DNA from: a virus
Lineage: Duplodnaviria > Heunggongvirae > Uroviricota > Caudoviricetes
Reading direction: 5' to 3' (one strand)
IMG/VR virus record: IMGVR_UViG_2617270978_000007
DNA length: 6,937 nucleotides
The notes beneath the pieces were generated by a model. That model saw nothing but the letters and a program-made list of their open reading frames with translations, was not told the DNA's origin and did not search any database. Shown here in pieces: positions 1,274 through 6,150 of the stretch. The stretch's first letter is position 1, and every line of letters starts with the position of its first letter. Both the position numbers and the translations under genes were made by a program.

Positions 1274-2418
1274 TTGCGCCCCCTTACCTCTGAAGGGTTC
1301 AGCGACAAATTTATGAGACTGGCCAGTAGCGCCGCGTCGTTGATGCGGTCATACAGACTTACAGCCAGCGGGGATTCGGCTTTTGCCAACATGGGATAAA
1401 GCTGCTGCAGCCAGACCTGATGAATTGATGAAATGTAGGAATAGAGAACGCTGGCGTTATGTGCAACGTCGCTCAGTACAGAGGGATTTGAAAGCTGTTT
1501 CTCCATCTGGTTAAAGGCATTGATGTATGCCTCTTTGAACTGGGCAGCACGTTTACCCGTGAAACCCATAGCAAGAAACGCAAAGCCGTCGCGGGTTATT
1601 TGATAGCAAGGTAGTTTGCGGCCTGTGCAATCGGTGTAATCACTCACCGAAAAATTGCGGGAAGTGAATGATGCAGAGCATTCAAGCGTGCGGATCTTTT
1701 TCAGTACATCGTCATGACGTTTGGAGAAGAAGTTGGCAACAGCCAGGGATGAAGTAACAGCCTGACCATCAACGATGGCAATTTCAGGTTGAGTGAGGGT
1801 TGGGATCGTAGCCATGATGGCAGCCTCCGTTGACTGTGGAAAACTTCCACCACCGGAGCTGCGAAACTCACTGGTGGCAGACTGAACAGGGTTCGCAGTA
1901 CCGGCGTCAACGGAGACCGGCGAGCCTTTCGGCTCCCCTGCCCAGCCCACCATAATTCTGGCGTGCGTGAGCGCGGACGATAAAAAAGACGCTGGCGCGT
2001 CATATATCGCCGTTGACAATTCCGGGCTGCGACCCCCGGCACCCGCTTTATAAGGTGCCTGAGCAGTGTAACGTCCCGGAATTGCAGAATCAATATGCTG
2101 GTGGTCCTTCACACTCAACAAAATCACGCCTGAATTTCCACAAAGGACTAAAGCACTCATGCGGGTAGTCTTTGCGAAGATAGATAACGCGCTGTGTTTC
2201 TGGCTCCCAACGAATAACATGGACATAAAGCCCTCTTCCGTCACGAAACCAGCGGTTAAGTTCCTGCACAACTCGCCCCCCACAGTCAGGTAAAGTTCTC
2301 TGTGGTTACTTACAGCCAGGTGATTTGGTAATCTGCATTCATGCCGTAACAACAGGTGTTCAGCGACGCTGACCACCAGCTGTTGCGACAAACGGTTATT
2401 TGCCGTTAAACTATTCAT
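1270..2418 (-). CDS. Rha-family phage regulatory protein (382-aa ORF; the Rha domain is the C-terminal 181 aa, with an alternative internal start at 1815)
   Basis: The C-terminal half (MATIPTLTQPEIAIVDGQAVTSSLAVANFFSKRHDDVLKKIRTLE...) carries the F-x-KRH-D-x-VL-x-x-IR signature of Phage_pRha proteins. An internal ATG at 1815..1813 is preceded by GGAGG at 1824..1828. The full ORF starts at an ATG at 2418..2416 that overlaps the upstream stop (ATGA), and its N-terminal ~200 aa are low-complexity (Ala/Gly/Ser-rich) with no recognised domain. Boundaries are uncertain between 1270..1815 and 1270..2418. Confidence 0.55.
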   Translation of the reverse strand: MNSLTANNRLSQQLVVSVAEHLLLRHECRLPNHLAVSNHRELYLTVGGELCRNLTAGFVTEEGFMSMLFVGSQKHSALSIFAKTTRMSALVLCGNSGVILLSVKDHQHIDSAIPGRYTAQAPYKAGAGGRSPELSTAIYDAPASFLSSALTHARIMVGWAGEPKGSPVSVDAGTANPVQSATSEFRSSGGGSFPQSTEAAIMATIPTLTQPEIAIVDGQAVTSSLAVANFFSKRHDDVLKKIRTLECSASFTSRNFSVSDYTDCTGRKLPCYQITRDGFAFLAMGFTGKRAAQFKEAYINAFNQMEKQLSNPSVLSDVAHNASVLYSYISSIHQVWLQQLYPMLAKAESPLAVSLYDRINDAALLASLINLSLNPSEVRGRK

Positions 2419-2972: not shown

Positions 2973-2994
2973 GGCTATCTCCTTAAAACTGTGG

Positions 2995-3243
2995 TTACTT
3001 TTCATCTGATGAATCTTTAATCTTTTGAAAAATATCTGGACGTAATTTTTCTTTTGATATGCCAGTGGTCTTTTCAATGAATATCGAAAGCTTTGCAGGG
3101 GGACGCTTTTCTCTGTTCAACCAGTTCCAGACATGTTGTTGCTTTACTAAATGACCGCTGCTGGCTGTGAGCTTCCGAGCCAATTCTGATTGACCACCAG
3201 CCAGAGCGATTGCCTCCGATAAGGCTAATTGCTCAGGTGTCAT
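2995..3243 (-). CDS. Cro-like HTH transcriptional regulator (YdaS-like)
   Basis: 82-aa ORF divergent from the repressor. ATG at 3243..3241 with AAGGAG SD 6 nt upstream. N-terminal HTH-like segment (LSEAIALAGGQSELARKLTASSGHL). Size and position match Cro. Confidence 0.75.
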   Translation of the reverse strand: MTPEQLALSEAIALAGGQSELARKLTASSGHLVKQQHVWNWLNREKRPPAKLSIFIEKTTGISKEKLRPDIFQKIKDSSDEK

Positions 3244-3378
3244 AGCTTTCTCCTTTTTTGGTAGTTAAGTTGTTACGAGCTGCAAGAATACAACATTAAC
3301 AACTTTTACCACAACTTTTAGATGTTGGAAAGCTAAAACATAAAGTTGTAACCTCATCAAAAAAGAGAGGGATATGTT
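3244..3378. promoter_or_regulatory. OR-like divergent operator/promoter region between the cro-like and cI-like genes
   Basis: 135-bp AT-rich intergenic region between divergent repressor and cro starts. It contains repeated ACAACT/AGTTGT motifs in both orientations: AAGTTGTTA 3267..3275 with its reverse complement TAACAACTT 3297..3305, and ACAACTTTTA at 3299..3308 and 3311..3320 as a direct repeat. It shares the 12-mer ACATAAAGTTGT and 9-mer ACCACAACT with the region at 4991..5025. Exact -35/-10 elements were not resolved. Confidence 0.6.
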
Positions 3379-4065
3379 GTGAAAACACTGGCAGAACGAT
3401 TAAAGATAGGTAGAGAGAAAGCTGGCATGAGCCAAGCTCAACTAGCTGAAAAAATTGGACTTTCACAACAATCTGTAGCCAAAATAGAGAATGGCGAAAC
3501 TCTACAACCGCGCAAAATTAAAGAAATTGCAAAAGTTTTAGGTGTATCACAAAAGTGGTTACAACTTGGTATTGAAGACAACGCATCCATACCTGATCTT
3601 GTTGTAAAAGAAGCAGAAAGCACCGCATTAGACCCCGATATTTTCGTAAACATTCCTGTTTTAGATGTCGAGTTATCGGCAGGTAACGGATGTCTGGCTG
3701 AAATAGTTGAATCAGCTATTGACTGGTTTCCGTTAAGAAGAGCAGATTTGAGAAAATCTGGCGTATGTGCATCTAATGCCAAGATCGTACAAATATGGGG
3801 GAACAGTTTATTACCGGTTCTCAATAATGGAGATCTTGTTGCCGTTGATATTTCTCAAACCGTTCCTATTCGTGATGGCGATCTTTATGCCGTACGAGAT
3901 GGTGTATTGCTAAGGGTTAAAATACTTATCAACTTACCTGACGGTGGCTTGATTCTTAGAAGCTTCAACAAAGATGAGTACCCAGATGAAATACTCACCT
4001 TTGAAGATAGACGAGCCAGAATTCATGTTATAGGTAGGGTATTCTGGTCATCGCGAACTTGGTAA
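3379..4065 (+). CDS. CI-like prophage repressor (XRE-type HTH N-terminal domain + LexA/S24 peptidase-like autocleavage domain)
   Basis: 228-aa ORF, GTG start at 3379 with GAGGGA SD-like sequence 7 nt upstream. N-terminal HTH (MSQAQLAEKIGLSQQSVAKIENGE). An Ala-Gly candidate cleavage site (LSAGNG), a GNSLLP segment with the candidate catalytic Ser and a downstream Lys (LLRVKIL) match the Ser/Lys dyad arrangement of LexA and lambda CI. Confidence 0.9.
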   Translation: MKTLAERLKIGREKAGMSQAQLAEKIGLSQQSVAKIENGETLQPRKIKEIAKVLGVSQKWLQLGIEDNASIPDLVVKEAESTALDPDIFVNIPVLDVELSAGNGCLAEIVESAIDWFPLRRADLRKSGVCASNAKIVQIWGNSLLPVLNNGDLVAVDISQTVPIRDGDLYAVRDGVLLRVKILINLPDGGLILRSFNKDEYPDEILTFEDRRARIHVIGRVFWSSRTW

Positions 4066-4938
4066 TGCATCGAAAAGCATTTCTTCAGAAATAATTTTAA
4101 GTTTTGCACCATTATCATCCCTATAAGATATAGCCTTTTCGATCTTCCTTCCGTGACTAGAGAATTTCCAATCACGGGAGGAAAGCGTCCCAATTACTAA
4201 AAAATCCAACTTTTGAGTAATTCCACTACTGATGTTCCCACCAGCATTTTTAATCAAATTTTCAACTACGGCTCTCTTTCCTGCAACAAAAGTGCCTGTA
4301 AGACAATAGGTTTTACCCTCTAACTCTATCGAAGCCCCTACATCAATAGGCAGCCTGGTCGCCAAACCATCCACCACCCCACTTTCCAAGTCACATCCTG
4401 TGAAGTCTACTAATGCCTTATGTAGAGTTAAACTCTCATCTTCAGTAATAACACCATCTTTAAGAATTTCCTTTACAAGTGCATAAAGTTTTTTTCCTGG
4501 GTAGTTGTTCTTCAAAGCTCCATTTTGCTCAAGCCACCAATTAAGATATCTTATTTCTTCTTGAGTTAAGTTCCGATCAGCAATTAATCCTTTACATAGT
4601 CCATTAAGTAAATGGACATCTACATCCTTGGAGTAAAAATCAATTTCAGGGATATCAAGAATTTCCCTCTGTATTTGGAGAAGGCTATTTTTAAGGTCAT
4701 CACGTTCTTCTGATGTGATTATTCCATCCGCAAGAATATCCGACACCCGAGCAGATAGACTTTTTATAACTCCATTATTGATAATCTGCTTTGCTTCAAG
4801 TAACCATGTATCTAAGTAAAGAACCTCCTCTTCACGGACAACTCCATCTGCAATGATTCCATCAATGATGCTAATCAAGTTAGCAAATAACTTGTCCCGG
4901 TTCTGTGTGTAATTAAAAGCGTAAAGCGCGTCTTCCAT
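4048..4938 (-). CDS. TerB-like repeat protein with C-terminal BRCT domain (296 aa); accessory (moron) gene
   Basis: ATG at 4938..4936 with GGAGG at 4943..4947 (MEDALYAFNYTQNRD...); the ORF-track start at 4968 lacks an SD. Four ~35-aa repeats carry the motif (I/L)ADG-x-(I/V)-x-x-EE (IADGVVREEE, LADGIITSEE, IADRNLTQEE, LKDGVITEDE), resembling TerB-type domains. The C-terminal ~85 aa (GKTYCLTGTFVAGKRAVVENLIKNAGGNISSGITQKLDFLVIGTLSS...AKLKIISEEMLFDAL) match the BRCT pattern of NAD-ligase C-termini. The stop at 4048..4050 overlaps the repressor 3' end by 18 bp. Confidence 0.8.
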   Translation of the reverse strand: MEDALYAFNYTQNRDKLFANLISIIDGIIADGVVREEEVLYLDTWLLEAKQIINNGVIKSLSARVSDILADGIITSEERDDLKNSLLQIQREILDIPEIDFYSKDVDVHLLNGLCKGLIADRNLTQEEIRYLNWWLEQNGALKNNYPGKKLYALVKEILKDGVITEDESLTLHKALVDFTGCDLESGVVDGLATRLPIDVGASIELEGKTYCLTGTFVAGKRAVVENLIKNAGGNISSGITQKLDFLVIGTLSSRDWKFSSHGRKIEKAISYRDDNGAKLKIISEEMLFDALPSSR

Positions 4939-4990
4939 ACAACCTCCTTTTTTTGATAATCCTTGCACTCCTTGGCTACTCGTTCAAACC

Positions 4991-5037
4991 ACATAAAGTT
5001 GTTGGCAACATTCAAAACCACAACTAAATTACAACTT
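4991..5037 (+). promoter_or_regulatory. OL-like operator region with predicted rightward early promoter (-35 TTGGCA 5002..5007, 17-bp spacer, -10 TAAATT 5025..5030)
   Basis: Shares ACATAAAGTTGT (4991..5002, identical to 3338..3349) and ACCACAACT (5017..5025, identical to 3308..3316) with the OR region, plus ACAACTT at 5031..5037. A perfect palindrome TGTTG-G-CAACA at 5000..5010 overlaps the candidate -35. The promoter is by eye only. Confidence 0.45.
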
Positions 5038-5121
5038 AAAGGTGTTAAGACAACGAACAGGCAGGACACCCACGAAGTAGCCGCCTGGGGCATATGAAGT
5101 CCAGGATGATTCGTTAGCAAC

Positions 5122-5145
5122 AAAAAAGCGCCCTACAGGACGCTT
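5122..5145 (-). terminator. Rho-independent terminator on the - strand (8-bp stem with one G.U pair, 4-nt loop, U-rich tail)
   Basis: The - strand RNA reads AAGCGUCC-UGUA-GGGCGCUU followed by UUUUGUU (from the + strand A-run 5122..5127). On the + strand the same stem has a C/A mismatch and no U-tract, so termination looks - strand specific. It lies about 240 nt downstream of the 144-aa gene stop and upstream of the OL region. Confidence 0.5.
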
Positions 5146-5146
5146 A

Positions 5147-5159
5147 GCTCTTTAACAAT
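5147..5159 (+). promoter_or_regulatory. boxA-like element (GCTCTTTAACAAT), candidate antitermination (nut-like) site about 120 nt downstream of the predicted early-left promoter
   Basis: GCTCTTTAACAAT at 5147..5159 matches the rrn-type boxA as recalled (GCTCTTTAACAA) and the lambda nut boxA core (CGCTCTT-A). It follows the 5126..5145 hairpin, giving a hairpin-then-boxA order like rrn leaders. Confidence 0.4.
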
Positions 5160-5381
5160 CTGGTCCCCATCAACAAGTAACTGATAACTTGAGGAGGTGT
5201 GAAATGCACAAAACAGAACCCAAAATCGTCGCGCCTAGCTACACAGATGAGTAAATTTATGAGTGGATGACAAAGAAGCTGGCAGCTATAAACCAGCTTC
5301 GTGAAGTGCTGTCTTATCGACAGGAAACAATAGACTCCTTAAAAAAACTGGATCAGGAAATCACGGTTTTATCACAGGATG

Positions 5382-5816
5382 TTACTTTAGATATTGTGCA
5401 GACAAATTAGGATCCCATTCATTTTCGTCAAAATCATCAAAGTGATGAATTTGTGATCTCCAGTCTCGATAATCTAAAAATTTCTGGGCGGTTACGCTTA
5501 TTTTATCAAGTGTGAGTTCATCCTGAATTGAAAGAAGAAGTTCATCAAATTTCATCTCATTAATCTGTTTTGGCATCCAGTGATGCTTCATCAGAATAAG
5601 GTGAACCAGAGCCTTTTTCCCATTCAACTGATTATAGGGAGTGCCGAATTTCTTCCGGTGCTCATGTAAGACAAGATCCAGAAGAGTAAGTAATGTTGCC
5701 CTTGATTCCACTTTGCTTATTTCGACTGATGACACTATCCCACTGATTTCAATGCCCCGATACTTTCCAACATTTTCACAGTGGGATTTGTACAACGTGT
5801 AGATATTACCGGACAT
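5382..5816 (-). CDS. Hypothetical protein (144 aa), orphan accessory gene antisense to the early-left direction
   Basis: ORF-track ORF; ATG at 5816..5814 preceded by AAGGAAA SD-like sequence. Acidic C-terminus (HHFDDFDENEWDPN), no obvious TM segment, no recognised domain. Flanked by direct repeats upstream (5832..5883) and a - strand terminator downstream (5122..5145). Confidence 0.62.
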   Translation of the reverse strand: MSGNIYTLYKSHCENVGKYRGIEISGIVSSVEISKVESRATLLTLLDLVLHEHRKKFGTPYNQLNGKKALVHLILMKHHWMPKQINEMKFDELLLSIQDELTLDKISVTAQKFLDYRDWRSQIHHFDDFDENEWDPNLSAQYLK

Positions 5817-5883: not shown

Positions 5884-6104
5884 GTCCACCTCGCCTGATG
5901 TGGCTAAAAGCAGGCACATAACAGCTAAGTATTTTCAACCAGAGAGAATCCTTAGAGTTGTGGTGAATGCGCAGGCTGATGCGCGAAAGACATTGCAGCT
6001 ATTGCGGAAAAGAGCTGTTCGGCGGGGCAATTAAACGCCCGTGAGAGTCTGAAATAACCGCAAGCCGGAGATCAGCACCGGTCACCACAACAGCCACTGC
6101 TTTG

Positions 6105-6150
6105 GCGGTACCAGTTTGTACACTTGCTTCCGGCTGGTACCGCTCTTTTT
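6105..6150 (+). terminator. Hairpin with perfect 10-bp stem (GCGGTACCAG / CTGGTACCGC) followed by TCTTTTT; candidate intrinsic terminator or antitermination element overlapping a boxA-like CGCTCTTTTTACAAAAC
   Basis: Stem arms at 6105..6114 and 6134..6143, 19-nt loop, T-run at 6144..6150. The sequence CGCTCTTTTTACAAAAC at 6141..6157 resembles boxA. Located about 140 nt upstream of the 6288 gene start. Confidence 0.45.

Follow-up and report, generated by a model that had tools for sequence, protein, structure and literature searches.

The left operator (OL) of phage lambda consists of three sites, OL1-3, that overlap the early-left promoter pL, with nutL downstream and the rexAB genes placed between cI and OL. 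Phage 434 has a right operator (OR) and a left operator, each with three 14-bp sites in which the outer 4+4 bases are conserved (PMC1636474). Here we describe a block at positions 4985-5045 of a 6,937-base stretch of viral DNA (IMGVR_UViG_2617270978_000007), hereafter the window, which is the early control region of an Escherichia coli lambdoid prophage of the SfV/e14/CPS-53 type. A preliminary description had proposed that this block is the equivalent of OL and pL. We find this reading supported by operator-like sites shared with the cro/cI intergenic region, by a plus-strand promoter, by the position of the block at the edge of the immunity-specific DNA, by equal genome counts for the block and the repressor region, and by the repeats of other immunity types. 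From these comparisons we estimate, with a probability of roughly 0.8, that the block is the left operator and early-left promoter of the prophage immunity module. That a lambdoid prophage has an OL/pL pair is to be expected. Comparison alone serves here to define the operator code, a half-site ACAACTT arranged in 15-bp dyads, together with the two control regions of an immunity type that has no sequenced phage representative in the collection searched, and the immunity groups of these prophages are now predictable.

The likeness to lambda OL/pL lies in the arrangement of the locus. A second operator set is found beyond cI as seen from cro, and it has a motif in common with OR. This set overlaps a strong predicted sigma-70 promoter directed away from cI, stands at the edge of immunity-specific DNA, and is separated from cI by an accessory gene, while a boxA element lies in the leader. 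The immunity module, at approximately 2990-5046, contains in order cro, the cro/cI operators, cI, a BRCT-domain gene and the OL block.

The motifs that had first linked the two intergenic regions are present as described. The 12-mer ACATAAAGTTGT occurs at 3338-3349 and 4991-5002 in exact copies, with no other copy in the window, and the 9-mer ACCACAACT occurs at 3308-3316 and 5017-5025. Conservation of the 9-mer across alleles is limited to ACAACT. An additional copy of the 9-mer on the minus strand (5956-5964) is a lone half-site within shared DNA, and we treat it as chance. The recurrence of ACAACT/AGTTGT half-sites in both regions also holds, since 7 of the 12 copies in the window fall within two short intergenic blocks; the same two blocks contain 6 of the 7 copies of ACAACTT.

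We compared the window with six homologous immunity modules, giving seven loci in all. Two of the six are E. coli alleles (87% and 75% nucleotide identity), and four are loci from outside E. coli with 57-71% repressor identity, labelled Pseudomonas lundensis, Providencia rustigianii, Proteus terrae and Serratia microhaemolytica. This motif comparison, which the preliminary description had suggested, resolves two full 15-bp operator-like sites per region in all seven loci, and the same four sites are found in 7 of 7 modules. Their consensus is the quasi-palindrome ACAACTT-N-AAGTTGT. In the window, the four sites are ORa and ORb in the cro/cI region, and OLa (distal) and OLc (proximal) in the OL block (Table 1); the 12-mer mentioned above corresponds to the rightmost 12 bases of both ORb and OLa. 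Counts over the 56 half-sites (A56 C49 A49 A42 C56 T39 T48) give the half-site consensus ACAACTT, with positions 1 and 5 invariant. The 24 bp that separate ORa and ORb equal the spacing of adjacent lambda operators.

Using a 15-bp weight matrix derived only from the OR sites of the six other loci, we scanned each target locus and recovered ORa, ORb, OLa and OLc as the exact top matches in all seven, with scores of 19.6-21.8 bits in the window. With the same matrix, the best score in 200 dinucleotide shuffles has a mean of 11.1 (standard deviation 2.1) and reaches 19.2 at most. The motifs might nevertheless be seen as a chance by-product of two AT-rich intergenic regions: A+T content is 67% in both, compared with 55% for the window, and a single 12-mer repeat carries little weight alone. 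The preliminary description had regarded the 12-mer match by itself as near chance, a caveat that proves too cautious, as 8-mer sharing, the matrix and the shuffle controls are all beyond chance. Block 4985-5045 and the cro/cI intergenic region have 12 8-mers in common, whereas the other 61-nt tiles (n = 1,286) share a mean of 0.39 and a maximum of 4 with that region, AT-rich tiles likewise not exceeding 4. The sites are also conserved amid varying neighbours down to 57% repressor identity. Conservation, the OR-derived matrix with its shuffles, and the tile counts thus refute a chance origin, to which we assign a negligible probability.

The geometry of the OL block is also conserved. The spacing between OLa and OLc is 43 bp in 7 of 7 loci, and OLa is near-invariant among the 7 aligned alleles and among 16 distinct alleles. 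In three of the loci (L005, L008 and L011), the better half-site of OLc is on the opposite side (ACACCTTAAAGTTGT) with the dyad preserved, and this switching of sides fits the expectation for a symmetric site. OLb, a lone half-site between the two operators, keeps a constant offset (+31/+32 from the OLa start) in all seven loci, while the remaining promoter spacer is variable. Three further candidate sites were rejected. A middle operator between OLa and OLc would lie in an unconserved spacer; at the start of the cro promoter, the 15-bp stretch 3259-3273 matches in its right half alone; and a 15-mer within cI (3531-3545, 16.2 bits), which is outside the top 8 matches of every other locus, is treated as chance.

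A consensus scan finds the promoter that had been proposed for this block, TTGGCA-17-TAAATT, at 5002-5030 on the plus strand. It points away from cI, toward yfdP/yfdQ, and is bracketed by OLa and OLc. Its hexamer positions predict a transcription start near 5037, which places the centre of OLc on the predicted start and that of OLa at about -42. Across alleles, the hexamers and operators are conserved and the 17-bp spacer is free to vary except for OLb. The same scan was applied to L004, L008 and L009. L004 and L008 carry TTGACA-17-TAGATT or TAAATT, matching the consensus at 10 of 12 positions, and in 1.4 kb of L004 there are three promoter-like matches only, namely pL and two overlapping versions of the cro promoter.

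The window copy of pL departs from its relatives at one base. The -35 hexamer begins TTGAC in 15 of 16 distinct alleles; base 5005 is G in the window and A in 15 of the 16, including the 99.7% identical RefSeq genome from which we took the gene annotation (TTGACA there). Over 4975-5050, a single one of the 72 E. coli genomes with the module (strain RM7190) matches the window. The change from TTGACA to TTGGCA probably weakens pL in this copy. It also accounts for the palindrome TGTTG-G-CAACA (TGTTGGCAACA), which the preliminary description had highlighted at the -35. The palindrome is indeed present at 5000-5010, but it is unconserved, and other alleles read TGTTGACA... at this position. Because the single rare base G5005 creates it, we do not regard the palindrome as a functional element and rejected it as an operator.

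We also examined how the block is distributed. The repressor/OR module is present in 72 of 5,426 E. coli genomes and the OL block likewise in 72 of 5,426, a frequency of about 1.3% of complete E. coli genomes. The module extends to the four loci labelled Pseudomonas lundensis, Providencia, Proteus and Serratia, and the OL block is conserved down to the lowest repressor identity among them, 57%. At the right edge, immunity-specific DNA ends at about 5046, and the DNA from 5047-5053 onward, just past OLc, is common to 1,413 E. coli genomes that represent many immunity types. On the left flank, phage matches stop near 2990. The common DNA opens with a conserved structured leader element, and the sequences upstream of this leader in viral contigs (83 distinct) typically contain a promoter of the TTGAC type with immunity-specific inverted repeats on either side. 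One such repeat set is near-identical to lambda OL2 with the pL -35 (TATCTCTGGCGGTGTTGAC). For many of these immunity types, a second cluster of their repeats is found 0.7-2.9 kb upstream, at the expected cro/cI position; in SfV and in L002, another E. coli immunity type, this recurrence was seen by eye. The immunity edge, the equal genome counts, an allele in which the BRCT gene is deleted (see below) and the repeats of other immunity types together indicate that phages of this group have their pL/OL slot at this position, with operators being swapped along with the repressor.

Phages and prophages of the SfV, SfII, SfIV, ST64B and mEp460 type share the backbone genes ymfL, yfdP and yfdQ with the prophage, and they carry the same leader directly past a TTGACA-type promoter flanked by their own cro/cI repeats. 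In contrast, their repressors and operator sequences differ (TGTACC...GGTACA in SfV, for example), and the SfV promoter is located directly after cI and a terminator, without a BRCT gene. The SfV record annotates operators at cro/cI only and no left operator.

The repressor itself provides a second comparison. Among PDB sequences searched with phmmer, the phage 434 repressor is the best match to its N-terminal domain (1PER, E 3.5e-14), with about half of the 65 aligned DNA-binding residues identical. Judged from this alignment, the DNA-binding domain is a homologue of the 434 repressor. SQQSVAKIENG, the recognition helix, is aligned opposite TQQSIEQLENG, so that both begin (S/T)-Q-Q-S and end E-N-G, and Q30, Q31, K35, I36 and E37 are invariant in 7 repressor alleles of 58-93% identity, in keeping with the conservation of the half-site. 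The outer operator bases of 434 are ACAA...TTGT and are contacted by two glutamines; the half-sites here also open with ACAA, and OR and OL are both present. However, the operators in the 434 structures compared (PDB 1PER, 2OR1 and 1RPE) are 14 bp long, whereas the sites here are 15 bp, one base pair longer. The 14-bp arrangement of the 434 type (ACAA-N6-TTGT) fails to describe them, as all 28 sites in the seven loci read ACAAC-N5-GTTGT (ACAA-N7-TTGT). Lys35 is found where 434 has Gln33, the fifth half-site base is an invariant C, each region has two full sites instead of three, and the Cro is of the YdaS type and not a 434 Cro homologue. A 434-like recognition helix on sites that are one base pair longer amounts to a small natural experiment in operator spacing.

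In the S24 domain (Pfam PF00717) of the repressor, G141-N142-S143 and K181 are invariant, and an A-G pair lies within ELSAGNG; L011 is without the A-G. We take the catalytic Ser and Lys residues to be those indicated by analogy with LexA. Both the Ser/Lys dyad and the Ala-Gly site are in place, which fits a predicted LexA/cI-type, SOS-cleavable repressor.

Instead of the repressor, the repeats might be bound by another protein: the YdaS-type Cro alone, a YmfL/CII-like activator, or a replication or partition protein acting on iterons. The lone half-sites in direct orientation (3290, 3299 and 3311; 5020 and 5031) do look iteron-like. In contrast, the four strongest sites are dyad-symmetric 15-mers on promoter elements, and their outer ACA...TGT agrees with reading by a Q-Q-S recognition helix of the 434 type, which contacts these bases. 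Moreover, the sites travel with the cro-cI cassette, whereas the replication genes are common to other immunity types. Binding mainly by such a protein is therefore very improbable in our assessment.

Under the OL/pL assignment, repressor dimers bound to OLc in a lysogen would cover the pL start, aided by the half-site at the -10, and repressor would also occupy OLa at the edge of the -35, so that both sites would shut off rightward transcription. The 43 bp between OLa and OLc are about four helical turns, which makes cooperative binding plausible. Upon DNA damage, self-cleavage of the S24 domain would allow pL to fire, and the transcript would run through the structured leader and the boxA to the small open reading frame (ORF) at 5204-5410, yfdP and yfdQ. 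The protein at the Cro position would probably act at the same sites, as in lambda and 434.

Several observations weigh against this assignment. The block has two full operators 43 bp apart and a lone half-site, not three contiguous operators as in lambda and 434, and the centre of OLa near -42 is at a position typical of activation, not repression. The rightward operon is broken by an opposite-strand gene, the ECs1072-family gene, with its own terminators. A characterised phage with this repressor was not found in the phage collection, where the best match is 44.5% identical. The mutated -35, together with an in-frame TAA at 5252, suggests that the window copy may be partly defunct. Finally, the sequence is compatible with binding of either cI or Cro to the sites.

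The locus also differs from lambda in other ways. The lambda operators are 17 bp long, whereas those here are 15 bp and unrelated in sequence, and two full sites and a half-site bracket the promoter where lambda has three contiguous sites. Between cI and OL, the accessory gene is encoded on the strand opposite to cI and has no relation to rexAB. An N-like protein is not found here, the first ORF being that of a broken, acidic 68-aa phrog_1744 protein, and the structured leader element is absent from lambda. The operators of this repressor type are previously undescribed; for the operator and leader sequences, nothing relevant was found in the searchable literature.

We next consider the accessory gene. 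The gene order bears out the preliminary description in placing it between cI and the OL block on the opposite strand, and it converges on cI with an 18-nt overlap. The gene had been named TerB-BRCT. Pfam confirms the BRCT domain and finds no TerB domain even at E values up to 10. Similarly, the parallel drawn with rexAB holds for the position between cI and OL and for nothing beyond it. The protein has a full-length match to phrog_3989, and the gene is retained beside this repressor family in four other genera (L008, L009, L010 and L011). Vibriophage K139 encodes a 33% identical protein, orf2, within its cI-orf2-glo-int lysogenic operon, and phage PG1 has a shorter relative downstream of its repressor. 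With PADLOC there is no more than a weak partial match to the candidate PDC-S48, and among papers on BRCT with prophage or defence, none could be linked to this gene by title or abstract. By eye, the N-terminal part of the protein contains four repeats of the DG-x4-E type. That a BRCT-domain gene stays with this repressor family is a testable lead.

This gene raises the question of whether the block is mainly its control region, that is, a repressor-regulated promoter of a lysogeny-expressed accessory gene, with the plus-strand promoter being incidental. The start of the BRCT gene lies 50 nt to the left of OLa, and a minus-strand terminator (5145-5126) insulates the gene from upstream transcription, so that it requires a promoter. 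A weak candidate, TTGAAC-17-TGnAAGGAT, abuts OLa; it has a predicted start near 4952, which puts the centre of OLa at about -43, and it fails the consensus scan. In alignments, its motifs ATCCTT(G/A)CA and AATCAAAC are kept solely where the BRCT gene is intact and are degraded in the deletion allele L004. Homologues in or beside the repressor operons of K139 and PG1 also favour this reading. However, L004, which stands for 25 E. coli records of 80-90% identity without an annotated BRCT gene, argues otherwise. Its BRCT gene is internally deleted, with remnants of both ends still visible (L004 3600-3720), and the sequence left of the operators, including the candidate minus-strand -10, has decayed, whereas both operators and the plus-strand hexamers are intact. 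The strongest promoter is on the plus strand and is followed by the leader, and other immunity types have equivalent blocks and the leader without a BRCT gene before cI. We thus consider it unlikely that the block serves mainly the BRCT gene; control of this gene is compatible as an addition to pL, not as a substitute.

Such an addition can be outlined. For both pL and the weak TG-extended BRCT promoter, which stand back to back, OLa is situated about 42-43 bp upstream of the predicted start, a geometry that matches lambda cI at OR2 relative to pRM. This arrangement suggests that the BRCT gene may be expressed in lysogens by repressor activation. Tentatively, and with the odds against it, we propose that OLa does double duty: a repressor dimer there would activate the BRCT gene in lysogens and, together with OLc, silence pL; the BRCT protein would be a lysogeny factor switched on by the repressor; and pL transcripts would pass terminators by means of the leader RNA and boxA, not N. 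If this is true, the BRCT protein has travelled with the repressor family across Enterobacterales, with relatives in the K139 cI operon.

Downstream of pL, the leader element forms an outer stem and an inner hairpin, with compensatory changes in 7 of the 15 predicted pairs (for example CCTGG/CCAGG, CCCGA/TCGGG, CCGGT/ACCGG and CCAGC/GCTGG). A covariance model finds a single copy per locus. At least 120 viral contigs contain its exact core pattern, and leader-containing DNA is matched in 1,413 E. coli genomes; named phages with the leader include SfV, SfII, SfIV, ST64B, mEp460, mEp237 and ZF40. It is annotated in no phage record, and no Rfam family matches the leader or the operator region. Single-sequence folding of 5037-5210 is unremarkable, with z-scores of -0.5 and +0.4 on the two strands. 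A second, putR-like copy of the leader was considered and rejected, as the covariance model detects no copy downstream of cro, and lambda yields no significant match. The element may act as a leader RNA or in antitermination. As a structured RNA that is widespread, unannotated and situated where early-left transcripts begin, it offers a further testable lead.

The leader is followed by a hairpin and then by GCTCTTTAACAA, identical to the core of what we take to be the rrn-type boxA. This boxA is found in 43 of 126 leader-bearing stretches. An N-like gene and a lambda-type boxB were not identified nearby. Further downstream, the hairpin before yfdP (-22.4 kcal/mol, z-score -2.6) has a similar counterpart in L005 and is likely a plus-strand terminator inside the early-left operon. 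Such a terminator, together with the boxA, agrees with an early operon dependent on antitermination. The first ORF after pL carries an in-frame TAA (5252-5254) in place of GAA, both in the window and in the 99.7% identical genome, and judged from this stop codon the prophage copy is probably decaying.

Table 1. Coordinates of the operator-like sites, promoter elements, RNA elements and genes in the window.
Feature	Position	Strand	Details
OLa (distal), ACCACATAAAGTTGT	4988-5002	dyad	19.6 bits
OLb, lone half-site ACAACT	5020-5025	+	abuts the -10 hexamer, one base in common
OLc (proximal), ACAACTTAAAGGTGT	5031-5045	dyad	21.8 bits, top match of the window
pL -35, TTGGCA	5002-5007	+	TTGAC(A/T) in other alleles; first base is the last base of OLa
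pL -10, TAAATT	5025-5030	+	TAGATT or TAATAT among relatives; separated from the -35 by 17 bp
ORa, ACAACTTTTAGATGT	3311-3325	dyad	overlaps the -35 of the leftward cro promoter
ORb, AAAACATAAAGTTGT	3335-3349	dyad	24 bp from ORa
Three conserved half-sites, AAGTTGT, ACAACAT and ACAACTT	3267-3273, 3290-3296 and 3299-3305		around the cro promoter -10 and start
Candidate BRCT promoter	4987-4959	-	-35 TTGAAC (4987-4982; TTGATT in most relatives), 17-nt spacer, TG-n-AAGGAT (4967-4959)
Conserved structured leader element, ~62-74 nt	5048-5121	+	starts ~11 nt past the predicted pL start
Hairpin, a strong intrinsic terminator as read along the minus strand	5145-5126	-	after the leader element
GCTCTTTAACAA, identical to the rrn-type boxA core	5147-5158	+	directly after the hairpin
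First ORF after pL, acidic 68-aa protein, phrog_1744	5204-5410	+	intact in most relatives
GC-rich hairpin (GCGGTACCAG...CTGGTACCGC), then TCTTTTT	~6105-6150	+	upstream of yfdP
Rha-family regulator, 382 aa	1270-2418		RefSeq annotation
ymfL			RefSeq annotation (99.7% identical genome)
cro-position gene, YdaS-type helix-turn-helix protein	2995-3243	-	Pfam PF15943; RefSeq: small transcriptional regulator
cI-type repressor, 228 aa, WP_000853320.1	3379-4065	+	Pfam HTH_3 and Peptidase_S24; RefSeq: XRE-family regulator
BRCT-domain protein gene, 296 aa	4048-4938	-	RefSeq; Pfam BRCT, C-terminal
ECs1072-family gene	5382-5816	-	RefSeq
yfdP, yfdQ		+	RefSeq

In the cro/cI control region, the cro-position gene is divergent from cI in every related locus, and the half-site map between them is conserved across loci. 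The cro promoter reads TTGTGA-18-TATAAT in L004 and L008, and its -10 in the window is at 3285-3290 on the minus strand. In the other direction, ORa adjoins the -35 (TTGGAA, 3325-3330) of a candidate cI maintenance promoter, TTGGAA-18-TAACCT (TGGAAA-18-TAAAAT in L009), and ORb sits within its spacer. In 6 of 7 alleles, a half-site-like unit, ATGTTGT/AAGTTGT, at 3374-3380 also overlaps the GTG with which cI begins; it could reflect chance, start-codon context or autoregulation.

To the left of the immunity module, Rfam identifies a C4 antisense RNA (1870-1957, minus strand, 78.8 bits) and isrK (1982-2058, minus strand, 58.7 bits), both above their gathering scores. The two RNAs lie within the 5' part of the annotated Rha-family ORF, whose real coding start may be the ATG at 1814. 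With this start, the ORF and the RNAs may form a c4-controlled antirepressor module of the P1/P7 type beside the cI/cro switch.

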